A stretch of DNA of 64,000 nucleotides, from assembly GCA_951406725.2 (NCBI GenBank), contig OX597827.1:36642001-36706000 (forward strand), given 5' to 3'. A program made the position numbers and the translations under genes. Shown in pieces: positions 4,720-56,035 of this stretch. The notes beneath the pieces are model-generated. The model made no database searches and had not been told where the DNA came from. It was given only the letters and a program-made list of their open reading frames with translations. Source of the stretch: Octopus vulgaris (Eukaryota). The stretch's first letter is position 1. Each line of letters begins with the position of its first letter.

Positions 4720-6315
4720 ACCCTGAAAAACCAAAAATATTGAATCTCTCAAACCTAAACCTGTCGATCCAGCAAATCAAAATCCTTTCAAAAGGACTAA
4801 AATTCACTCCAACTCCACCTGAGTGAAATACAGGATGTCACACTTTTGCAGAAAATTACGCCTCACAGAGGAATTTTTTGACAAAGAAATCAATAACGAC
4901 GAATCAATGGTTTGTAACAAAAGCAGTTATAATCCCACAAAAGGCAGAAACAAAACTTTGGACAAATTTTGTGACTACATTTCAAACTTTCCTTATAGTG
5001 AACTTCCACAACCTAAACCCAACAACAGTAAAAGGGAATGGTAAATGATCTATAAGTTACGAAACAATCATGACACCACAATCAAGAAAGCAGATAAGGG
5101 TAGTGCTGTTATCATTATGGATACTGAACAATATAAAAACTGTATCTCATCTTTTACAAGATACTATCTACTATGAAAGAGTAGTCAACTACCAACAGTC
5201 AAAAACAATGACCAAATTAAACACACTCATTTGCCAACATCGAAATAACTTAACAGCAAAGGAATGCGACTACATAACAAACTTGAATTGCAAAACCAGC
5301 ATCCTCTACGGGCTTCCAAAAATTCACAAGAGCAAAATTATTACCAAAGCTTGCAAAAAGCCCACTTCAACCTGCATCACTGTGTCACATCCCACTGATC
5401 TCAAACTGAGACCAATTGTGGCAGGCCCAAAATGTGAAACACACAGATTAAGCAACTTTATCAATATCATCCTAAAACCAATACTGAAACACATACCAAG
5501 TATTGTAAGAGATGACCTGGACCTATTAAATCATCTCCCCAAACATGCCAATAAAGACATTTTAATTGTCTCCTTTGATGTAATAAACCTTTATACTATG
5601 ATCCCACATGAATATGGACTGGAAGCCATTAAATTTTGGCTAGAAAATACCCCAATGAGGTCCTGGAAAGAATAAAAAAGAATTCATCATCGAGGGCTTT
5701 AAGTTTATTCTCTAAAACAACTTTTTTAATTTTAATAATAACACCTACAGACAGGTGTCAGGGACTGCAGTGGGTACTAAAGTTGCTCCTACTTATGCAA
5801 ACCTGGTGATGGCCTACCTAGAATTACAAATTTATGAAGAATCCAAATATAAGTATGGCCTGTCTTTCCACAAATACCTGTTGGAGAATTGGAAATGCTG
5901 CTCGGATGATTGCCTCATCTTATGGTCCCACACACTCGACCAACTTATTGATTTCAAAAACTTAATCAACAGTGTCAACAACCATATCCAATTTACAATG
6001 GAATATGGTCAAGACCAACTTCCTTTTCTTGACATTCTTATAAAAAAAGGCACCAACATTGAAACTGATATCCACTACAAACCAACTGATTCCAAACAAT
6101 ACCTTCTGTTCACCTCCAATCACCTAAAGCACACAAAGACAAACATCCCCTTCAACCTAGCGAGAAGAATCTGTACAATTGTCTCAAATTATAGAACATG
6201 AAATAAAAGACTCCAAGAACTAAAGGCAATTCTTCTTGAAAGACATTACCCAGCATCATTAGTTGACAATGGAATAGAACGGGCCAAGACAATTACTACC
6301 CAAGACTTACGAAAA
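4720..6315 (+). pseudogene. PLE reverse transcriptase pseudogene
   Basis: ADKG-like motif ~5090; LYGLPKIHK, LRPIVAG, VSFDVINLYTMIP, GTAVGTKVAPTYANLVM, DD motif, FTME...LPFLDI, KPTDSKQYL in ORFs 5070-5675 and 5755-6201; frameshifted. Confidence 0.9.
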
Positions 6316-6486: not shown

Positions 6487-8691
6487 ATGTTACTTGAAGC
6501 CTTTGACGAAGTGGAAGTGGGTATAGCTATACATGGGGTAGAAGACAACTGGACGTTTCTGAGGGACAACCTGCTGAAAGCCGCTGACCAGATCTGTGGC
6601 TGGTGCAAAGTCCCCTTAAGACCCAAAATAACGTGGTGGTGGAACAATATTGTTGATAGGGCTATTAGACAAAAGAAACAGGCTTGGAAGGCCTGGAAGA
6701 ACGGTGGTAGCAGGGAAGTGTATCAGACTGCCAGAAGGGAAGCTAGGAGACAGGTCTATCTAGCCAGAGGGGAAGCAGATAAAAGAAAATTTGCCAATGT
6801 CCTGCGCCGTGAGGATGAAAGACTTGAGGTATTTCGTGTTGCAAGACAGTGTGTGAGAGAGAATCGAGATGTGGTAGGAGAGAAATGTGTTCGCATGGAG
6901 GATGGTTCACTTGCGCTAAATGAGGATGCAAAGAGAGAAGCTTGGAGACGCCACTATGAAAGGTTGCTGAATGAGGAAAATGAATGGGATAAAGAGAGTC
7001 TGCCGAATGTTGACCCAACAGAGGGACCAGCTATCCGAGTTGATTGTTCCGTGGTAGCTAAGGCAATTAGAAGCATGAAGACAGGGAAAGCCCCAGGCCC
7101 ATCAGGAATTACTGCAGAGATGCTCAAAATATCTGGTAGTGTCGGCTATAGCATAGTTACCCGTATAGTTAACCAGGTGATACACGAAGGAGTCATACCC
7201 AATGACTGGTGTAGCAGCATAATAGTCAACTGCTACAAAGGTAAAGGCGATGCCCTAGATACAAATAACTACAGGGGCATCAAGCTGTTGGATCAGGTAA
7301 TGAAGGTTACGGAGAGGGTTATAGCCCAGTTAATTAGAGAGAGAGTTAGCTTAGATGATATGCAGTTTGGGTTCGTGCCAGGGAAAAGTACTACTGATGC
7401 TATATTCCTGGTAAAACAGCTGCAGGAGAAATACCTAGCCAAAGGTAAGCCCTTGTACCTGGCTTTTGTTGACTTAGAGAAAGCCTTTGACAGGGTCCCC
7501 TGATCCCTTATCTGGTGGTCAATGAGGAAACTAGGGATAGATGAATGGTTAGTGAGAGCTGTGCGAGCCATGTACAGAGACGCAGCTAGTAAGGTGAGGG
7601 TTGGCAACGAGTACAGTGAAGAATTCCGGGTAGAGGTTGGGGTCCACCAAGGTTCAGTCCTCAGCCCCCTCCTATTTATCATAGTCCTCCAGGCAATAAC
7701 GGAAGAATTTAAGACAGGATGCCCCTGGGAGCTCCTATATGCTGATGACCTTGCTCTAATTGCTGAGTCACTATCAGAACTGGAGGAGAAGTTTCAGGTG
7801 TGGAAACAAGGATTAGAATCGAAGGGCCTTAGAATCAACCTAGCCAAAACCAAAGTCCTAATAAGTAGGAAGGTGGACCAACCACAAACGACTTCAGGTA
7901 GATGGCCCTGCTCGATCTGTAGAAAAGGTGTAGGTAGAAACTCTATAAGGTGCACCAAGTGTAAGCTATGGACACATAAGAGGTGCAGCAATGTCAAAGG
8001 TAGGCTAACTGGGAAGATAGTTTTCGTATGTGGCAGATGCTCAGGAGAAATAAACACTGGAAATGTGCAGAGACCAACTTCTACCACGTTCCAGGGAGAC
8101 AAACTAGAAGTAGTTGATAGCTTCCGCTACCTTGGAGACCAAATTAGTAGCGGGGGTGGGTGTGCTGAAAGTGTAACTGCTAGAGTAAGAATAGCCTGGG
8201 CAAAGTTTAGAGAGCTCTTACCCCTGCTGGTGACAAAAGGCCTCTCGCTCAGAGTAAAAGGCAGACTTTATGATGCATGTGTACGTACAGCCATGCTACA
8301 TGGTAGTGAAACATGGGCCGTGACTGCTGAGGATATGCGTAAGCTCGCAAGAAATGAAGCCAGTATGCTCCGATGGATGTGTAATGTCAGTGTTCATAAT
8401 CGTCAGAGTGTAAGTACCTTGAGAGAAAAGTTGAACCTAAGAAGCGTCAGTTGTGGTGTGCAAGAGAGACGGCTGCGCTGGTATGGTCATATGACGAGAA
8501 TGGCTGAAGATAGTTGTGTGCAAAAGTGCTACACCCTAGCAGTTGAGGGAACCTGTGGAAGAGGTAGACCCAGGAAAACCTGGGACGAAGTGGTGAAGCA
8601 CGACCTACGAACTTTAGGTCTCACCAAGGAAATGACTAGAGACCGAGACCTATGGAAGTATGCTGTGCGTGAGAAGACCCGGCAAGACTAG
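6487..8691 (+). pseudogene. RTE reverse transcriptase ORF (5'-truncated) with a single premature stop at 7501-7503
   Basis: ORFs 6487-7503 and 7522-8691 are in one frame; GKAPGPSG, NYRGIKLL, QFGFVPGKSTTDAIF, FVDLEKAFDRVP, GVHQGSVLSPLLF, YADDL, FRYLG, RRLRWYGH, RGRPRKTW; TGA fits a CGA>TGA change. Confidence 0.92.
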
Positions 8692-8867: not shown

Positions 8868-9627
8868 TACCATCCGAACGTGGGCGTAGCCAGTATCGCA
8901 CCGACTGGCCTCCATGCTGTGGGCACGTTACAATCACCACCCAATCGTGGCCGATCGCCAGCCAAATCTGGCTCCTGTGTCGGTGGCACATAAAAAAAAA
9001 AAAAAACACCATCCGTGCGTGGTCGTCTGCTAGCCTTGTCTGGCACCTGTGTCGGTGGCACATAAAAACACCATCCGAGCGTGGCCGTTCGCCAGCCTCG
9101 TCTGGCACCTGTGTCGGTGGCACATAAAAACACCATCTGAGCGTGGTCGTCTGCTAGCCTTGTCTGGCACCTGTGTCGGTGGCACATAAAAACACCATCC
9201 GAGCGTGGCCGTTCGCCAGCCTCGTCTGGCACCTGTGTCGGTGGCACATAAAAACACCATCCGAGCGTGGTCGTCTGCTAGCCTTGTCTGGCACCTGTGT
9301 CGGTGGCACATAAAAACACCATCCGAGCGTGGCCGTTCGCCAGCCTCGTCTGGCACCTGTGTCGGTGGCACATAAAAAACACCATCCGAGCGTGGTCGTT
9401 TGCTAGCCTTGTCTGGCACCTGTGTCGGTGGCACATAAAAACACCATCCGAGCGTGGCCGTTCGCCAGCCTCGTCTGGCACCTGTGTCGGTGGCACATAA
9501 AAACACCATCCGAGCGTGGTCGTCTGCCAGCCTTGTCTGGCACCTGTGTCGGTGGCACATAAAAACACCATCCGAGCGTGGCCATTCGCCAGCCTCGTCT
9601 GGCACCTGTGTCGGTGGTACATAAAAT
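8868..9627 (+). repeat. 62-bp tandem array in the RTE 3' UTR: 10 near-perfect units alternating between two variants, preceded by 2 diverged units
   Basis: Unit starts at 9007, 9069, 9131, 9193, 9255, 9317, 9380, 9442, 9504, 9566. Confidence 0.95.
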
Positions 9628-9793
9628 CACCCACTACACTCTCGGAGTGGTTGGCGTTAGGAAGGGCATCCAGCTGTAGAAATGCTGCCAGATCTGACTG
9701 GCCTGGTGCAGCCTTCGGGCTCCCCAGACACCAGTTGAACCGTCCAACCCATGCTAGCATGGAAAGCGGACGTTAAATGATGATGATGATGAT

Positions 9794-15364: not shown

Positions 15365-15904
15365 GGAAGAGGTCAGAAAAATGTACAGATGAAGAAATAT
15401 TCCCAATCAAGGATATTTGTACATTTTAGCTTGTCAAAAATGGAGGAAAAGATCAGAGTAAAATAAATATGCATTACACATTTTCATGATCAAATAGATA
15501 ATAAAGTTATAGGTAAGGCCCATTAACAATTTTAAATGAGAATGTTTGATGATAATCCATGGCAAGGAATAATGGAAGTTATCAGTTCCATTTTTGAAAG
15601 GAGAATGAATTTGGGTTGAGTAGAAATAACATACTACAGTGTGAAGGAAAGACAGAATGTATATTTTCTATATACACACACATATCCTTCCTGTATTTGT
15701 AGATTTTCAACTCTACCTTAGGTGTTGTACATTACATTCCTGAAATAGTGTCAAAATCAAAAGTTAACAAATAAAAGAAAGTATTTATCCATCATTGCAG
15801 TGTTGAGTACTCATCCTCATTGTTTACATCAAATGTGTGTGTGTGTATATATATATATAAATGAAAGAATGGAGTCGAACGACGATTTTAACAAAATTTC
15901 TTTA

Positions 15905-15987
15905 CTCTCGACACATGTTTCAAAGGCTGCATATTCCTAATTCCGAAGGAATAAAGGGTGTATTATGCCACCATCTCATCAGGAAAG
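15905..15987 (-). ncRNA. Hammerhead ribozyme motif (minus arm)
   Basis: Reverse complement reads ctttc-CTGATGA-g...t-GAAA-catgtg-TC-gagag; stem I ctttc/gagag. Confidence 0.7.
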
Positions 15988-16081
15988 ACAAGGAACTTAT
16001 GTCAGCACCATGAAGGTGGACATCATGTGGGCAGTCATCTAAAAGTTTTTGCTCTTCATGGTGCTGACATAAGTTCCTTGT

Positions 16082-16164
16082 CTTTCCTGATGAGATGGCG
16101 GCATAATGCACCCTTTATTCCTTCGGAATTAGGAATATGCAGCCTTCGAAACATGTGTCAAGAG
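16082..16164 (+). ncRNA. Hammerhead ribozyme motif (plus arm)
   Basis: ctttc-CTGATGA-g...ggcggcat...atgcagcc...c-GAAA-catgtg-TC-aagag. Confidence 0.7.
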
Positions 16165-16359
16165 TAAAGGAATTTTGTTAAAATCGTCATTCAACTCCAT
16201 TCTTTCATTTATTCATAGTTAAAAAAACACACAAATTTACACACGAGAACACGGGATCCCTGCCCTTGGCATATAGCTTCAACCGTGTTTTCTGACGTGA
16301 ATTTGCTACCCAGGTATCGGTTAACTGAATTATCCATACTAGGATAATTCATTCACCTT

Positions 16360-16395
<36 letters not shown>

Positions 16396-16581
16396 AAGGT
16401 TTGAAGATGATGTACAGGTATTTTATATTAGAAGAAATGAGGTACTCAGAAATTCGAATGGTTTTATATTTACAGATATTTATTTGTATATTACATGTTT
16501 TTATACATCATATAACTTATATCATATATTAGCGCTTTCGTCTATTCTGATGGATTTTTCTAATTGAACCAAGTTCCTGTG

Positions 16582-16957
16582 GAAAAATTTTGACCATTTT
16601 ATAGTGTTATTGAGTGTGTAGTAGTGGGGAGGGATATAAGATAGTACAAGAGGGTGATGAATAGGGAGAAAGTGAGAGAGAGAGCATGTGTGTGTGTGCA
16701 TGTGTTTTTGTATCTGAAAGTAGTGTTAGAGAAAAAGAAGGGAAGGAAGAAAAGGGAGAGAGGGAAGAAGAAAAAATTGTTTTGCTGGTTTCTTTTGCAG
16801 TTGGTTAAGATGTTTACTCCAAGGTGGGGTCTAAGATCTTGGGGAAAAAATTTGACCATTTTATAGTGTTATTGAGTGTGTAGTGGTGGGGAGGGATATA
16901 AGATAGTACAAGAGGGTGATGAATGGGGAGAAAGTGAGAGAGAGCATTGTGTGTGTG
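16582..16957. repeat. ~115-bp direct duplication (about 16582-16697 and 16843-16957)
   Basis: ttgaccattttatagtgttattgagtgtgtagt...gagaaagtgagagagag present twice, ~260 bp apart. Confidence 0.9.
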
Positions 16958-16984: not shown

Positions 16985-17935
16985 CTATCCAGTGAAGGGG
17001 TGAAAATCTCCGCAAATGATAAGTTTACATGTCCGTTGAAGATGTTGAAAGCTGGATGAGATCTCCCTGCATCCTCTGTCGTTTGAGTGAAGGCAATGCC
17101 AGCTTTTGGAGATGTTCCTCTTGCGCAAGCTTAGACAAGCCCGTGCCCATTCGGGTGGCCAAGTGCTGAACCCGTTCCAGGTGCTGAATGTCTTTCTGGA
17201 GATATGGTTTGAGGTATGGATGCAATATTCGAGGATAGGTCGAACTAGAGTGATATATACAGGCCGAAAGACATCCATTGAAAGGTTGGCAAAGGATCGG
17301 TGGATGAGGAAAAGATTCCTTCTGGCTTTGTTCGCCGCCTCGATACCCTGCCGTGGTGGTTTGAAAGTAATATCGATCATTATGCCAAGATCCTTTTCTT
17401 CACTGATGTTGATGTTTGTGGCCAATTGTCAAGGGAGAGTTTAGAGGTGAACCTATTGGCAAGTGGCTGCATTTTGAGGTGTTCAAGGGCAGATCCCATT
17501 CTTCTGCCCAATTCCGAGCTTGGTTCAGCGACGATTGGAGTATGTCATATTGATTCCTAGGCGAGACAAGTTTGACGTCGTCTGCTTATAGAACTCATCC
17601 ATCAAGAAAATCTGGCAGGTCTTTGATATGGAGAAGGAAAAGTATTGGCCTCAGCACCGACCCCTGATGAACGCCGCTGCATGCAATCGTCTCCGTGGAG
17701 AGATCTCCATTTATGTGCACCCGAAAGGTTTGATAGCTCAGGAAGGAAGAAATCCACAAAGTCACCAACAGATGAATCTTGAATGCTTGAAGTTTGCACA
17801 AGAGAAGTCAGTGATTAACGGAGTCAAGCGCCTTTGCGAAGTCCAAAAATACCACGCCCACCGAGTCTTTTTCATCCATGGTCCTTGTAATCCATTCTTC
17901 AAGAAGGAGATTTGTTAGACAAGATCTTCGGGGAA
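16985..17935 (-). pseudogene. CR1/L2-group LINE RT C-terminal remnant
   Basis: SGVHQGSVLRPILFLLHIKDLPD, EKDLGIMID, RPILEYC, DIQHLERVQHLATR in minus ORFs; frameshifted. Confidence 0.85.
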
Positions 17936-20864: not shown

Positions 20865-21523
20865 CTAAATGATTTATTTTTAAAATGTTTACAACTTACC
20901 CCTAATTCCTGCCTATGCTTAATAAGGTTACCTGCTGCTTTGAGGATTTAGAATGATTCTTCTAGGCAAAGTTCACTTCTCTTTCTACCTATTTCATAAG
21001 GTTTAGTTCTACTGAGGGTTGGCCATTTCAGTTTGTATTCTATTTTTTCCTCCCTAATTTGCCATATTAACTTGCTAAGTGATGTCACATTTTCTGATGC
21101 CTAAATGATGAGATGTGGTTATAATATCGTAACTTAAATGTTGTGTCACAGCATCCTGTATATCTATAAGTTGTGTTCTGGGTAACTACTGAACATTCAT
21201 ATGCTATGTTCTTTTCTGAGCAAGATTTATTCAACACACATTCCCTACCACTTCCACAGTTACAACTAGTGCTTTCCTTCCTATTGCTGCTACTATTAGA
21301 GTTATTCCCACAATTACTGTCATTATTCATATTATTTCTGCTCTTTTCATTACCGTTACCACTACTGCCCCTATTCTTGTTGTTTCCAGTATCTTTTTTA
21401 TTGATCTTGTCCTCCTCTTAGCCTTACTGTTTTTATTATCTATTCTATTCCTGCCTAGTTCTGTCAATTTTAAGTTTTGTAATTCCCTTCTATGGGTGTT
21501 GTGGGATGCTATGATTTGTACTA

Positions 21524-23356: not shown

Positions 23357-24330
23357 CATGAATTGCATTTCTGCTTCTTGCAGGGCATTTGGACTCAGCA
23401 TTAGCCTGGACAAGACTGTTGTAATGTTCCAGCCTGCACCAGGAAATCCATATATAGAACCAGCTATCTTGGTTGAAGGAACAATTCTGAAGGTAGTAGA
23501 CAAGTTTGTCTACCTGGGCAGCACACTCAGCCGTTCTTGCTCCCTGGATGAAGAAATATCGTTCAGGTTGCAGAGAGCAACTAATTCCTTCCGGTCTCTT
23601 CAGTCTCGTGTCTGGTCCCAACATGGCATCGCAAGGAGAACAAAAGTTGCTGTGTACCGTGCTTGTGTACTGACATCGCTTCTCTACTCATGTGAGACAT
23701 GGATTCTGTACAAACGTTAGGTAAGGGTCCTTGAACGTTTTCATCAGAGATGTCTCAGACACATTCTCAATGTTGGCTGGACCTCAAAAATTCCAGACAC
23801 ACAGATCCTGAGGACAGCTGATATCTTGAGTATTGAGGCGATGGTATACAAGCACCGGTTGCGTTGGACTGGACACCTTATTAGAATGGAGGATAGAAGG
23901 ATTCCTAAGCAGATGCTCTATGGAGAACTTGTGAATGGAAGGAGACTCCGGCAGAAACCAAGGCTGCGATTTAAGGACTGTGTCAAGTCCTCGTTAAAGG
24001 CCTTTGATATGCAGGACACTGACTGGGAGAACAATGCCTGTTATCGCCACAGATGGAGGAAGCAGGTTAAGGAGGGGAGCGACACTTTTGAGAGAGCACG
24101 TATCCAGCATGAAGAACTTAAGTGAGCTGCGCGAAAGCGCATGGCTCATATAGTGAATGGGGAAAGCTTGGTCTGCAATGTTTGCAGTCGTGTATGCTTA
24201 TCAAGAGCAGGGCTCATTAGCCACCAACGGAGCCGCAAATGCAAAATATAAGTTAGTCCTAGAGCACACAATGTTCTTGAAGTTCGGCAATGGTCTTCCT
24301 CGGTCACGAGAGGACGGCCATCATCATCAT

Positions 24331-35507: not shown

Positions 35508-35712
35508 AATGTGACCGCGTGTGTACTGTTGGCGATTTTTTTCCCATGTCTTCCCTTCTCTGGATCTTTCCTTTTCCTATGTTTCTGATGAAGAGCTCTG
35601 CTCGAAATGTTAAACCCTCCTTCTTCCCTTCCTTCCTGAGCGTCCAATAATACTATATTTGTTCCACGTCCTCGCGTTGTTGTGTTTTCTCTTTGTGTTT
35701 TCATGTTTGGAT

Positions 35713-38331: not shown

Positions 38332-40156
38332 TAGTTTTATTTTTATAGCGTGCTTTCACTTCACTACCGAGCGCAGCTCTGTGTGCCTTGGGTATGTGCT
38401 GTGATTTGTTGTGATGCTCTGATGGTTATTGTATGGAAAGTGTTCTGCGTAGGATGTGTGCAGTGCCTAGTAGTGCAATTTTCTGTATGTTATATGTGTT
38501 TGTAAGTCCTGGTGTTTTTGTTATGTATTTGTCTGAATATTTTTTTATCATGCCTAATGCACCTACTATGATAGGAATTGTTTCTGTTTTCAGATTCCAC
38601 ATTCTAGTTACCTCTATTTCCAGGTCTTTGTATTTTGAGAGTTTCTCCATTTCTTTTAGAGACACGTTGTCATCTGCCGGTATTGATACATCAATTAGAA
38701 AGCATTTTTTTTCTTCATGATCTCTGACAACTATATCTGGTCTGTTGGCCTTAATTTCTCTATCTGTGTGTATCGGCATATCCCAGAGTATGGTTGCTTT
38801 CTCGTTTTCTGTGACCTTTTCTGGTGTGTGCCTATACCATCTTTTTTCTGTTGTTATTCCATAATGTTGGCATAGCTTCCAATGTATGTAGGTTCCAACT
38901 CTGTCATGTCTGTGAATATATTCCTTCTTAGCCAGGACTGGGCAGCTAGAGATAATATGATTTATTGTTTCTTGTCCATCTCCACATATTCTGCAGTTAC
39001 TTGTAATATTTCTTTTCATTACATGTTTTTGGTAATTTCTGGTGGGGAGGCTTTGGTCTTGTGCTGCAATTAAAAATCCCTCTGTTTCTGCTTTGAGTCC
39101 TGAGCTTCTCAACCATTGCTGGGATTTTTCTTTGTCTATTTCTTTTGCGTTTAGTTTAGTGCAGTATTTACCATGAAGGGGCTTTTCTTGCCATCGTTTT
39201 ATCATGGTTCGTTGCTGTTCTATTTTTAGTTTGGATTTCATTTGTTTTATAGCTTTTGTTGTTTCTTCATCATCTTCTTCTTCTTCTTCTTCGTGTTTAT
39301 TAGGTGGTATGATTTCTTGTTTGTATTTGTCAGCTTCCTTAAATACTGAGAACAGTTTTTTGTTTTGCTCGTGTTTTGCTGCTATCTGGATCAGTTTTCC
39401 TTCCTTCTGAAGTAGATATTTTTGCAGTCCTATGGTGGTTATTTTATAGTAGTTTTCCAGCTGTATAAGGCCTCTACCACCTTCTATACGTTGTATATAT
39501 AGTCTTTCTATGTCAGATTTTGGGTGATGCATCCTAGATCCTGTCAGTATTTTTCTTGTTTTCCTATCTATTTTGGACAGTTCATTTCGTGTCCAGTTAA
39601 GGATATTGTAGCTGTAACTTATAACTGGGACAGCTAAAGTGTTGATACCTATTATCTTGTTTTTAGCATTGAGCTCTGTTTTTAGTATTGATCTAACTCG
39701 TCTATAATATTCTTTTTTTATTTTCTCTTTCATTTGTGTGTGTTGTGTCTTATCTAGTTCATGGATTCCTAAGTATTTGTAAGTTTGGCTTTGGTCTAAT
39801 TCTTTTATTTCATTGGTTTTATCTAGTGTGATGTTGTTACTCTCAACTAGTTTTCCTCTTTTCATGGTTACTTTGGCGCATTTTTCTAATCCAAATTTCA
39901 TATCTATTTCTTTGGTAAATCCATGAACTGTCTTTAATAGTGTTTCCAGCTGTTTGTCATTTGCAGCGTATAGTTTTAGGTCATCCATATATAAAAGGTG
40001 GCTGATCGTTTTGCCGTAACATTTATATCCGCATCCAGTTCTATTTAGCATATCAGATAGAGGTGACAGTGCCAAGCAGAAAATGAGTGGAGAGAGCGTG
40101 TCTCCCTGGAATATTCCTCTTCTAATGGGGATGTCTTTGGTTTCCATGAGTCCCTC
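38329..40156 (-). mobile_element. 5'-truncated R4/Dong-like non-LTR retrotransposon inserted in (TAA)n
   Basis: (TTA)n on both sides (~38296-38328 and ~40161-40208); RT, CCHC and REL domains. Confidence 0.92.
38426..40147 (-). CDS. Stop-free C-terminal part of R4/Dong polyprotein (RT C-half, CCHC zinc knuckle, restriction-like endonuclease); 5'-truncated, so probably not functional
   Basis: RGIFQGDTLSPLIF, HLLYMDDLKLY, YKYLGI, GGRGL, CRICGDGQETINHIISSC, RHD, NRPDIVV...LIDVSIP, EKLSKYKDL. Confidence 0.85.
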   Translation of the reverse strand: METKDIPIRRGIFQGDTLSPLIFCLALSPLSDMLNRTGCGYKCYGKTISHLLYMDDLKLYAANDKQLETLLKTVHGFTKEIDMKFGLEKCAKVTMKRGKLVESNNITLDKTNEIKELDQSQTYKYLGIHELDKTQHTQMKEKIKKEYYRRVRSILKTELNAKNKIIGINTLAVPVISYSYNILNWTRNELSKIDRKTRKILTGSRMHHPKSDIERLYIQRIEGGRGLIQLENYYKITTIGLQKYLLQKEGKLIQIAAKHEQNKKLFSVFKEADKYKQEIIPPNKHEEEEEEDDEETTKAIKQMKSKLKIEQQRTMIKRWQEKPLHGKYCTKLNAKEIDKEKSQQWLRSSGLKAETEGFLIAAQDQSLPTRNYQKHVMKRNITSNCRICGDGQETINHIISSCPVLAKKEYIHRHDRVGTYIHWKLCQHYGITTEKRWYRHTPEKVTENEKATILWDMPIHTDREIKANRPDIVVRDHEEKKCFLIDVSIPADDNVSLKEMEKLSKYKDLEIEVTRMWNLKTETIPIIVGALGMIKKYSDKYITKTPGLTNTYNIQKIALLGTAHILRRTLSIQ

Positions 40157-40209
<53 letters not shown>

Positions 40210-40214
40210 GGTAA

Positions 40215-40600
40215 AATATATCAACAAATAAAGGACTCAGTTATGGGAACAAAATTTGCACTTACATTCTTCATATGCTAATCTAGTGATGGGATATTTA
40301 GAAGAGAAATTATACAAGGGAGTAGAGAAAACTTTTATTTTTTGAGAGAAATCAAATGATCTACAAATATTCAATAACATTTTGAACACCCTTCATCCAT
40401 CTATTAAATTCATGACAGAAACCAGCCATAATGATTTACCTTCTTAGACATTCATGTAAAAATACACAAATTCACAATGGATATTTATTACAAAACAAAA
40501 AACAGACACATCAATATTTGAACTTTTACTCTCGTCAACCTTCACACATCAAATAGAATATTCCATATAGAATAACAAGATGTATTTGTTCAATAGTTGT
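40215..40600 (+). pseudogene. Old PLE RT fragment
   Basis: MGTKFA...YANLVMGYLEEKLY, LNTLHPSIKF, LPFLDI-like and NIPY motifs; many indels. Confidence 0.7.
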
Positions 40601-44747: not shown

Positions 44748-46130
44748 ATCAAAATAAAATAAAAACATTTGGAGTTTAAATTAGAATTATCGCTAGTGTG
44801 AGTTGAGTGCTAAGTTCGATTATAATTGGGAGTCTTATGGCCGACGGACGCTCCCGGGTGGTCTACATATGATATTCTCTGGTTATACCCGGCACTATAG
44901 AGAGCCTGGTTGTAGTGTTGTGCATGATTATTGAAAATTTCTCTATTAGAGGATAGTTTTGTCAGTCTGTCTGAGATGGCTTGGACCGTGGTGCTAATTA
45001 TACAGGGTGGATGGTTGGAAGAGGTATGGATGTATTTGGTAGTTTCTTCCGGTTTCCTATACGGGTAGTGAAGGTGCTTATTCAAATCTAACGTAACATC
45101 TAAGAAGTTTACTATTTTAGTATTGGTCATAAATTCTAGTTTAAGATTGAAGGATTTGAAAAAAGCCTGATCTTTTTCCTAATTCTTTCTAGTTTACTCC
45201 TATTGTTGGTGGGGTATATGAAGAGAGCGTCGTCTCTGTATAGACCCCCCTGAAGATCCGGTACCTCGGAGAAAAGCTTCTTGAGCAGGTAGGCCCCGAC
45301 CAAGTCAGTCACCTGAGCTGAATCGCTCGAGCCCATAGCCACATCGAAATTGTCGGGGGTATCGGATCTGGTCCAGAGTCTACCGTCGAATTCTATTATG
45401 GTTTTTCTAGCTAATAGAATTATGTCAATTTTTTCTCTGTCTATGAGTGAAAGGTTGCGGGCAAAAATAAGGGATTTGTTAAGTAAGATGGGGGATATAC
45501 TGGCGTAGTAGCTAGCTATGTCGAATTGGATGAATGAGTAGTCGGGCCTATTGGTGATAGTGTTAAACAATTCTAGCACATCGTTGGTGTTAATCCATAG
45601 TTGGAGTGGGATGTGGGGTTTCTATTTTTACTTTATAACCTTATGCCTTTACATTTATTTATATTTCTCCTTTCAACTCTTTATATCTTTATCCTCTACA
45701 TTTTTATATTATTCTATACTTACACTTTTTATACATTTTTTATCCCTCGTCCCGAACTCCCGCCCCTCCATCTTCAACTCTATATATGTATTTATTTATT
45801 TACATTACCTCAACATCCAAATTTCCTCATTCTACATTGAGAGAAGAAAGAGATGGACGCTTCAATTCTATGCTGCTGCCGCATTATGTCGTACGTGAAT
45901 GAGAGGATTTGCATCCCCAACCAAGAATTTTTGATGTAACACATGTCCTTGTGGAAGCTGTTGTGCGCGGCTGAAGAAGGCCACAGACATACATTATGCA
46001 TTGTTATAAATCTGTCTAATAAAGGCCCAAAACATATGTACCGCTGAATCCTTCGCATCATGTTTTTATTTTATTTTGATCAATTTACTCCACCACCTAC
46101 ACCACCAAACGGTATACACAGGTGCTTATA
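44744..46130 (-). mobile_element. Naiad-like PLE: RT fragment on minus with an inverted, hammerhead-bearing pLTR at its 5' side
   Basis: FIQFDIASYYASI, FDVAMGSSDSAQVTDLVG, GLYRDDAL, VNFLDVTLDL, SNHPP in ORFs 45136-45579 and 44810-45130; 25-bp IR 44744-44768 / 46060-46084; (TA)n flanks. Confidence 0.85.
45967..46044 (+). ncRNA. Hammerhead motif with G12>A lesion
   Basis: gcgg-CTGAAGA-aggcc...ggccc-AAAA-catatg-TA-ccgc; palindromic stem III, GUA triplet. Confidence 0.7.
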
Positions 46131-47073: not shown

Positions 47074-47407
47074 AACACATAAGAGATAACCAAAAAATAG
47101 GATATCTGACTCACTAGAAAGAGCAGTTAAACTCCAAGCCACTATTTGTTGTAATTCTGAAAGTGAATGAAAAATAAAAACTTTTACCTTATTGCCCTAG
47201 ACTATGCATAATTCCTGCTGGCTTAAATATAGATTGAAATAAAATAATTCCAATCTATATCTGGTGCTGCTTCTTCAGTAGGATGCCAGGGATCAAACAC
47301 ATAGACACGGGGCAATAAATAAACAATGAACCCCAAAGAACCAATATAACCCCAATGAAGAACGACAACACCAAGTTATATAAGTTAAGAAATCCATACA
47401 GAAATAA

Positions 47408-53040: not shown

Positions 53041-53419
53041 GACACAAAATGCATACGTGTATGCACACATGCACACACATCATTGCACCTTGTGTTTGGA
53101 TGTTTACTCATAATTGTAGAGTTTCACATTTCTTTCAAATATTTTGATGTCCAACTTGGTTCTTGGGATTATTTCTGAGATTATGGAGTTATGGATTCAT
53201 AAATGAGTGTATATCATGTGATGTCATGGGTATGTATGATGTCCATATATTTGTGTAATGAGGGAGCTCAGCATACGTTGATGAGGGTATGCATCTTTGA
53301 TGCATAAAGTTCATATAATGCATATGATTGCTATTTAGAGAACAAAGCCCTATCCAAGTTGGGTGGTGGTGGTAGCAAAGAAAGTAGTGGGCCGTGTTTG
53401 AAATTTCAGAGTGGGAACT

Positions 53420-53990
53420 GTTACTTGTGTGTGCAGGGAGAAAAAGTTTCATCCATAATATTTAAAATATTTGTATTTGATGTAATAATGTTTAATTTTT
53501 CTGTGATGCAAAGTTTGCGTTTGCTGCCCTGTCCCCTGTATTAGTTGGCCTTAGCAATAATACTCCAGATTATCTGGGGGTTGTTCACACCTCTCCCTTT
53601 CAGTGTCCATACCATATTGGATAAAGATGTTGTGTGTTATTTGTTTATGCCTCTAAACAAAACCAAATGCTCCATATAACTTTCTTTGAAGTTGTTTCCT
53701 GTCCTTCCGATATACGTTTTTTTTTTTTGTTACTCCATTCAAATCTGTGATGTTGGTCTTGTACCCCAGTTCTTTCTTCAGGTACTCATTGTTCAGCCAT
53801 CTGCAGATCCGAAATTACATAGTCTTGGGTGGGGTGAAGGTTTCTAATATTGTTATTTTATTGTGACCAAATACAATTGACCCTATATTGGGGAAGCAAT
53901 AATAGATAACTTTAACTGTATTTCTATTGAAGATCTTAAGGTATTTATGTCAGTGTGGGAAGTGGTTTGATAAAACATTATCACATGATT
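53420..53990 (-). pseudogene. Naiad-like PLE linker/GIY-YIG remnant
   Basis: Minus: KVIYYCFPNIGSIVFGHNK; FKESYMEH; TTSLSNMVWTLK; IWSIIAKA; KLCITEKLNII; SPCTHK. Confidence 0.7.
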
Positions 53991-54289: not shown

Positions 54290-56035
54290 TATCCTTGCAA
54301 ATGAATACCATGAGAGCTATGCTGGTGGGAGATTTGTCTCCTGGTAGGGCCACCCAAGCCAGACAGGTCGAAGGTTAGAGACCAGGACTGAAACCAGGAT
54401 AGGGACCTGGAACATCTGAACCCTATATGAGGCCAGGAAAAAGTGCACAAGTGTGCAGAGAGATGCACGGTTACAATCTGAAGATTCTTGGCCTGTGTGA
54501 GACAAGATGAATGGGAACAGGATGTACAAGGCTCACAAGGGGTGACACCATCATCTACTCTGGAAAGGAAGAAGCCCAGCTACACACACACAGAGTAGCA
54601 CTGCTGATGACACCTGAAGCAACATGAGCAATGCTGTCCTGGAAATCAGTGTCACCAAGGATCCTGACTGTAAGATTCAACTCAAAGGGTAAGGAAGTTA
54701 CCATCTGACAGTGTCCCCACAAATGCAGCAAATATGGTGGACAAAAAAGAGTTCTATGAGCAACTCCAAGTAGTCATGGATAAAACACCAAAGAGAGACC
54801 CGAAGATCCTTATGGGAGACTTGAATGCAAAAGTGGGAATGAACAAGAAAGACAGAGAATGATTCATGTGCTGACATGACACCAGAGAACAAAATGTAAA
54901 TGGCGGACTTTTTACAAAATTTTTCTCCTTCAATGACCTAGTCATAAAAAGCACTGTCTTTCCTCACAAGAAGATCCACAAGACAACATAGATTTCCACT
55001 GGTGGCAAGTCTGAAAACCAGATGGACAACATCACCATTGACAGAAAGTGGAGAGGGAGCCTGCATGACGTTAGAGTAAAGCGTGGAGCTGACACAGCAT
55101 TGGATCACCACTTGGTAGTAGCAGTTTACAGGACCAAGCTGAAAGACTTCAACAACTGAGTAGGAAGATCATCACAGAGGTACAATGTATGCAGCCTGAA
55201 AGAGAAAGAAACAGCAGAAAGATTCAAGGTTGAACTGAGGAATAAGTTCAGAGCACTTTCACAATTTCCAGATGAAACAATAGAAGAACAGTGGCACAGT
55301 CTGAGTGAGGTCTGGAGAACAACATGCACAAAAGTCCTGGGGATGAAGACAAGGAAACGTAAGAAGTGGTTAACAACAGAAACATGGAAACTGATCACAG
55401 AGAGAAAACAACTGAAAGACCAGATCAGCCAGACACAAGATCAAGAACAGAAGCAAAAACTACAAGCAGATTACCAGGAGAAAAATCAGAATGTGAAGAC
55501 AAATGCAAGGAAGGACAAGAGAAATGTCATTGAGGAGTTGACTGAGGAGGCAGAGACTACAGCAGGCCAAAGGAATATGAAGAGACTGTATGAGATCACC
55601 AGAACACTCTCTGGAAAAGCCAGCAACCCCAGCCGTCCAGTCAAAAATAAGGCTGGAAACATTATCCCAGGTGAAGAAACTGAGCTCCTAGACATCAACA
55701 CCAACCCACCAACCAAGACTGAGATCACTAAAGCCATCAAGTCCCTTAACCCTTTTGATACCAACCTGGCCAAAAACGCCTCTGGCTCTGTAGTACAAAT
55801 GTCTTACTTTCATAAATATTGAATTAAAATCTTCCACCAAACCTTAGTCACAATTTATGTTCCTAACACTAGCCTAATGATAACTAAGTTCTTTTTCTAA
55901 ATTCCTCGTTACAATTAAAATTAATTGAATGAAACATAGAGCATCTCAAAATAAATACGGTAATGAAAGGGTTGTCAGGAAAGGCAGCAAGCCTTGATGC
56001 GATACCACATGAAGCACTGAAGGCACACATTTTAA
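54290..56035 (+). pseudogene. RTE-clade LINE 5' part (UTR, APE endonuclease, linker), degenerate
   Basis: RIGTWNI, ILGLCETR, ILMGDLNAKVG, TVFPHKKIHK, DVRVKRGAD..DHHLVVA; KAIKSL...SGKAA..D.IP split by a MITE. Confidence 0.85.
55750..55971 (+). mobile_element. piggyBac-like MITE inserted at a TTAA in the RTE remnant
   Basis: ttaa|cccttttgatacc ... ggtaatgaaaggg|tt; RTE sequence resumes afterwards. Confidence 0.75.

Follow-up and report, generated by a model that had tools for sequence, protein, structure and literature searches.

The element at the locus

The stretch of DNA that was analysed, 64,000 nucleotides long and called the window in what follows, contains at 15857-16362 a 506-bp element which, judging by its sequence, is a 5'-truncated head-to-head insertion of the end of a Penelope-like element (PLE) in a TA repeat. 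Its features are collected in Table 1. Element positions are numbered along the 506 bp, so that site A is position 356 and site B position 506, each followed by TA. The segments 15857-16015 and 16054-16212 are reverse complements of each other at 152 of 159 positions; the seven differences are all transitions, five of them at CpG. The original prediction described 159-bp arms around a 38-nt spacer between (TA)n bounds and attributed them to inverted duplication of a PLE end, and both the architecture, with TA runs on both sides, and this origin are borne out. In ORF-bearing copies of the family, the stretch corresponding to the spacer extends upstream into the 3' UTR. The locus is an ordinary dead retroelement stump. 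Immediately to its right lies a 112-bp direct repeat (16571-16682 and 16833-16944) with 95% identity between copies.

Table 1. Features of the 506-bp element and of its flanks in the window
Feature	Position	Strand	Description
(TG)n/(TA)n run, left flank (target site)	15834-15858	.	From the sequence; related loci are also TA-flanked at both ends
Tail-less arm, 5'-truncated copy of the PLE end, leftward	15857-16015	-	Ends at site A (position 356), truncated at 198
Type I hammerhead motif, minus	15894-15998	-	Core from 15982, GAAA from 15921, cut after 15910
Tail-bearing arm, 5'-truncated pLTR copy	16016-16362	+	Element positions 160-506, ending at the fixed site B
"Spacer"	16016-16053	+	38 nt; element positions 160-197 of the right arm, not reached by the left arm
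Type I hammerhead motif, plus	16071-16175	+	Core 16087-16093, long stem II, GAAA 16148, cut after 16159
Tail, sites A to B	16213-16362	+	150 nt
(TA)16 run, right flank	16362-16393	.	Sixteen TA units

A Hydra-like family of Penelope-like elements

BLAST of the 506 bp against the 2.8-Gb assembly gave 4409 candidates. Among the 40 of these that were scored, 27 (the query locus included) match over the full length and 13 from position 160 onward. Longer copies of the family carry an ORF, absent from the window copy, that encodes a reverse transcriptase (RT) with a C-terminal GIY-YIG domain of Hydra-like type and contains an Asn-rich insert. Its atlas matches are RT/GIY-YIG clusters, with 146 homologs found, and a Pfam scan of four ORF pieces recognised no family.

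The pLTR lies downstream of the ORF in one locus (L062) and is also present upstream of the ORF start in other loci. In four of seven loci inspected, the tail runs directly to an ATG 54 nt beyond. Since the tail continues into the ORF start, the pLTR also serves as 5' UTR. Between site B and the ATG, two loci (L141:891-945 and L142:808-862) show a pyrimidine-rich stretch with a TACAG end that resembles a splice acceptor. Like Penelope, the family may have an intron in its 5' UTR; no splice joint, start or end could be read in the assembled contigs of public runs.

In the endonuclease domain, CCHH is absent, and CxxC and CxH stand beside conserved E and N, the E being found in 21 of 24 rows, a set in which some loci are represented more than once. 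At the N-terminus, DKT is present and RWL replaces RWK. The linker motif CxCX5C was found in none of the 24 family rows, against nine of nine aligned homologs. The family has the features of EN+ PLEs, namely an RT-GIY-YIG ORF, a pLTR on both sides and an inverted 5'-truncated copy with a one-sided tail. From the Hydra clade it has the absence of CCHH, the CxxC/CxH pattern, the hammerhead and the insertion in (TA)n, but not the CxCX5C linker. By these described motifs, it is classed as Hydra-like and not as a member of Hydra.

The Hydra clade (PMC8557442) likewise lacks CCHH and has DKT, CxxC/CxH around E and N, a hammerhead and (TA)n insertion. The octopus copies differ from it by the missing CxCX5C, by RWL for RWK and by a unit of about 3.5 kb instead of less than 3 kb. 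Octopus appears at four places in the supplement of the same paper, two of them Naiad rows. More generally, EN+ PLE insertions (PMC8557442, PMC3846280) share with the octopus family a pLTR with hammerhead, an inverted truncated 5' copy, a one-sided tail, an AT- or TA-repeat target, an RT with C-terminal GIY-YIG and an Asn-rich ORF insert. Their tails measure 30-40 nt, compared with 150 nt here, and the window copy has no ORF. The inverted truncated copy, the one-sided tail and TA targeting are already known as standard for PLEs (PMC8557442), whereas the 150-nt tail, the lost linker motif and the quantified rule of end pairing described below are distinctive of the octopus family.

The 150-nt tail is also found in a sister subfamily about 75% alike. 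One part of it (window 16276-16345, including TGACGTGA) is near-invariant between the two subfamilies. A search with RNAalifold for conserved structure in the tail proposed 19 pairs, and in none of them do both sides change. One copy (L066:1439-1647) terminates at position 387, followed by a TA run, which corresponds to a 31-nt tail, of canonical length; the common form of this end had no match as a genome pattern, a pattern that misfits the A-run of L066 itself. Five copies within less than 1 Mb (L049-L053, G000:C14:73.45-74.31 Mb) have identical scores and an identical endonuclease translation, and this cluster is probably a segmental amplification.

Hammerhead motifs

The right arm was initially read as a complete hammerhead. 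Its conserved residues are all in place, with CTGATGA at 16087, GAAA at 16148 and a GUC ending at 16159, and the left arm mirrors the motif on the minus strand as expected (CTGATGA from 15982, GAAA from 15921, cut site 15910). However, helix III, formed by the self-complementary segment 16151-16158, is unstable as a monomer, so the motif is of the dimer type only. The core CUGANGA/GAAA/NUH and helices I and II are present: helix I is long, with an internal loop, and helix II has 11 bp and a branched-loop cap. Helix III comprises only 2 bp with a self-complementary loop, and its computed pair probability is 0.004-0.021 even in the isolated motif. With a second copy, the same 8-nt segment is predicted to form a duplex of -6 to -7 kcal/mol.

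CUGANGA is retained in 162 of 180 distinct family copies and the full core pattern in 126 of them. Over 46 copies, the proposed structure has 93.7% of cells paired and five pairs with changes on both sides, while none of 500 shuffles scored as high and slid controls reached 36-49% paired; these copies were picked for divergence and are related by kinship, so that the figures are not a probability. Rfam gave no hammerhead match, either at the gathering score or at E<=10, but only sub-threshold hairpin look-alikes such as miRNA models.

Each window copy has its own lesion. On the plus strand, G>A at 16160 breaks the first pair of stem I, which becomes C.A; on the minus strand, the closing pair of stem II has become G.U. 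The family has C-G at the former in 118 and G-C at the latter in 122 of the 126 full-core copies, which identifies both as lesions and agrees with the CpG-type lesion announced for each copy. Both motifs have decayed through transitions, in a neutral-looking way. When the whole element is folded, stems I, II and III have a mean pairing probability of 0.000, whichever strand is taken. The idea that the rod masks its own ribozyme therefore holds in the predicted fold. The hammerhead itself is the ordinary pLTR ribozyme of the element and is predicted to act as a dimer formed by tandem copies on the same strand. A second hammerhead-like motif, minimal and unrelated to the PLE family, occurs in the window at 35585 (+), with CTGATGA, a short GC stem and GAAA.

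In viroid-like ambisense RNAs, each polarity carries a ribozyme motif on a rod-like fold. The window element differs from them: it is an insertion of linear DNA, each of its motifs is a copy of the other, and it gives no sign of RNA-to-RNA replication. The analogy drawn with such RNAs is superficial. The genomic data explain the symmetry without viroid-type replication. A closer counterpart was reported in 2014 for the Cercyon PLEs of Schistosoma, which carry two hammerheads, one per strand, at a distance of 100-700 bp (PMC4209133). As in the octopus family, the ambisense double hammerhead of Cercyon comes from truncated PLE ends, and its type I motif has a palindromic, unstable helix III for which a dimer is presumed necessary. 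The Cercyon hammerhead is minimal, whereas in the window family helix I is long and contains an internal loop, and helix II has 11 bp.

Fixed outer ends and variable inner junctions

The exact pattern of site A followed by TA has 599 matches in the assembly, a few read-through copies included, and that of site B followed by TA has 298; the controls gave none. From these lists, the first 30 of each end and 120 further places were taken, that is 172 loci after removal of 8 duplicates from 180. They are not a random sample, since they were selected on contigs C1-C6, the first six, by exact matches to the end patterns. Five false site-A arms from a sister subfamily were excluded before counting. 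Among the 172 end-anchored loci, 112 are head-to-head A+B pairs, one is A+A and one B+B, and 58 have no detected partner.

The inner junction behaves in the opposite way. The 102 head-to-head pairs whose arms are joined within 60 nt have 101 distinct junctions. The arms share at least two bases at the joint in 39 pairs, are blunt or share one base in 26 and are separated by extra bases in 37. They overlap by at least 30 nt in 55 pairs and not at all in 40. The tail-less arm reaches more than 10 nt further 5' than the tail arm in 66 of the 102 pairs, or in 57 of 93 without the nine pairs whose tail arm begins at 484-487. Arm starts are weakly correlated (rho 0.33). Near-symmetric pairs, with starts within 10 nt of each other, number 19, and two loci (L029 and L002) are almost perfect hairpins. 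As for the window, its inner junction is found within 3 nt in none of the 102 pairs and is absent from the 29 other loci inspected. Recurrence of the junctions at many loci, which had been put forward as a check, is therefore seen for the outer ends, present at hundreds of sites, and fails for the inner one, whose uniqueness had been named beforehand as an outcome that would refute the prediction.

In 36 pairs whose arms overlap by at least 80 nt, a set that does not include the window locus, the mean distance of an arm to its own partner is 0.025, compared with 0.064 to other loci. Rare alleles are present on both arms in 17 of these 36 pairs, and in only 13 is no other sequence as close as the own arm. 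Shared alleles could also result from gene conversion between arms.

Hammerheads on both arms were found in only 19 of the 172 loci. Because the arms truncate independently, inner junctions are near-unique and the double hammerhead is restricted to these 19 loci, the rod is remade at every insertion. The double hammerhead appears as a minority outcome, in loci where both copies happen to be long enough, and the pairing of ribozymes probably arises by accident from the mode of insertion.

RNA template and 5' ends

Among 299 arm 5' ends, 24 fall at 149-152 (12 of them at 151), against about 3.6 expected; another 32 are located more upstream. In CTCATT, a match to the Initiator consensus, position 151 is the A. 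Since the 5' ends cluster at this Initiator-like site, the simplest reading is that transcription would begin at 151 and that short copies would be run-offs from the upstream pLTR on uncleaved RNA. Ribozyme-cut RNA was also considered as template and rejected, as 5' ends do not pile up at the predicted cut site 303-305 (0 of 299, against 2.7 expected, a deficit that is weak on its own).

The window arms begin at 160 and 198, so that neither carries the probable start site. A conditional ribozyme, as suggested for this locus, is not supported, given that both arms start downstream of the likely transcription start and that the motifs have decayed. The hammerhead of the window copy is likely inert: its opposite-strand copies cannot dimerize in cis, the probable promoter start is absent and both motifs are decaying.

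Origin of the inverted arms

The family, its ORF, the fixed ends, the variable junction and the A+B rule are read directly from sequence, and the mechanism is reconstructed from these genomic products. Very probably, both ends of a cut TA repeat prime reverse transcription at two fixed RNA sites 150 nt apart, and the truncated cDNAs are then joined. The endonuclease would cut both strands of (TA)n; site A would serve one target end and site B the other, the template being either one RNA or two sister RNAs held by the protein, which is probably dimeric. Short copies would likely be run-off cDNAs of the upstream pLTR. The cDNA ends would be joined head to head, with or without microhomology. For an inverted repeat to form, the B-primed cDNA would have to extend past site A; for a hammerhead on each strand, both cDNAs would have to extend past the hammerhead.

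The chances lean slightly towards a more specific version of this mechanism, a programmed twin priming. A dimeric RT-endonuclease would prime each break end at a different fixed site of the sense RNA, and most short copies would be strong-stop cDNAs of the 5' pLTR, extending to the transcription start on uncleaved RNA. In L1 twin priming, two target ends also prime, the 5' segment is inverted and microhomology is found at the joint. The second priming site of L1 varies and the segments barely overlap, whereas in the octopus PLE the second site is fixed and the segments often overlap.

A biochemical counterpart is PAc, a Poseidon element of Anolis, which nicks and extends both strands, initiates reverse transcription at two internal sites bounding the tail and uses uncleaved RNA as template in vitro (PMC11167929). 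Like the octopus family, PAc has two fixed ends bounding the tail, an A/C-rich sequence after the first site and a pLTR that runs into the ORF start. It belongs to a different clade, and the octopus sites are 150 nt apart with one used per insertion end; site use in PAc showed no difference between strands and was not tied to inversions (PMC11167929). A literature search, with most subscription papers outside its scope, found no published two-site model of inversion and no A+B rule.

For the head-to-head repeats of rotifer Penelope elements, fold-back self-priming on an antisense template has been proposed (PMC3846280). Applied to the inverted arm of the octopus family, this explanation is very unlikely. 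It might account for some of the 19 near-symmetric junctions; the near-perfect hairpins L029 and L002 and the weak correlation of arm starts speak for it as well, and the alleles common to both arms fit a single template. Yet self-priming cannot yield the 40 non-overlapping pairs or the 66 pairs in which the tail-less arm outreaches its partner, which means that neither arm is a fold-back copy of the other. Furthermore, the symmetric cases concentrate where both arms run off at the common 5' end near 151. The A+B pairing rule likewise speaks for priming at two sites, from both target ends, rather than for fold-back self-priming.

A self-contained ambisense fold-back unit acting as a conditional ribozyme or as a substrate for ADAR or Dicer, as originally envisaged, and propagating in that form, is extremely unlikely, although 26 other loci among the 40 scored of 4409 match the whole 506 bp by BLAST, the predicted rod masks both motifs and family sequence occurs in contigs of runs guessed to be RNA. 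The unique inner junction largely refutes it as a propagating unit, the "spacer" being the extra 5' part of the longer arm. Moreover, the motif is on both arms in a small minority of loci only, arms track the subfamily of their own locus with no left-arm lineage, both motifs bear transition lesions and neither arm includes the likely start site. At 16160, 16193 and 16273, A>G differences are also present in the large run X17 and equal family variants; because of this match, and as the kind of run X17 is not on record, they are uninformative on editing.

A one-off inversion or an assembly artefact has a negligible probability: the inner junction is indeed unique and spanned by none of the public contigs examined, but both outer ends are fixed sites used at hundreds of loci and the seven arm differences, mostly CpG transitions, are those of a real aged insertion.

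Two other classes of elements were considered and set aside. A MITE or fold-back DNA transposon does not fit, as the 150-nt tail lies outside the repeat and the junction varies between copies. Non-LTR retrozymes are head-to-tail tandem units with a hammerhead in each (10.64898/2026.07.22.740005), whereas the window copy is head-to-head and has no tandem unit.

Other elements in the window

The window contains remnants of several other retroelements. An RT remnant at 44786-45597 (-) belongs to a second, diverged Hydra-type PLE, 40-47% identical to P0001. Linker or endonuclease remnants of related PLEs are found at 20867-21264 (-) and 53397-53976 (-), and an Asn-rich frame at 21088-21417. The frames at 5049-6198 (+) resemble the RT of another PLE clade, and those at 7504-8688, 16988-17428, 23721-24122, 38429-40240 and 55160-55819 resemble LINE-type RT remnants. 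A repeat at 47407 seems similar to a cephalopod SINE. A tandem array at 9002-9631 consists of ten 62-bp units with a 124-bp higher-order period at 97%. As for host genes, the ORF list of the window, which is not a gene prediction, comprises retroelement remnants and no evident exon.

Implications

The window family matters modestly, as it bears on how PLEs make inverted repeats and tails. Genomic data alone separate the models of inversion here, through the near-strict A+B pairing, the pairs without overlap and the peak of 5' ends. TA targeting by a family without the linker cysteine motif questions the role proposed for CxCX5C. Rods such as that of the window would supply long dsRNA genome-wide if they lie within transcribed regions. 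Finally, if twin priming is true, a family with hundreds of datable insertions would make the inversion step of the PLE cycle testable.
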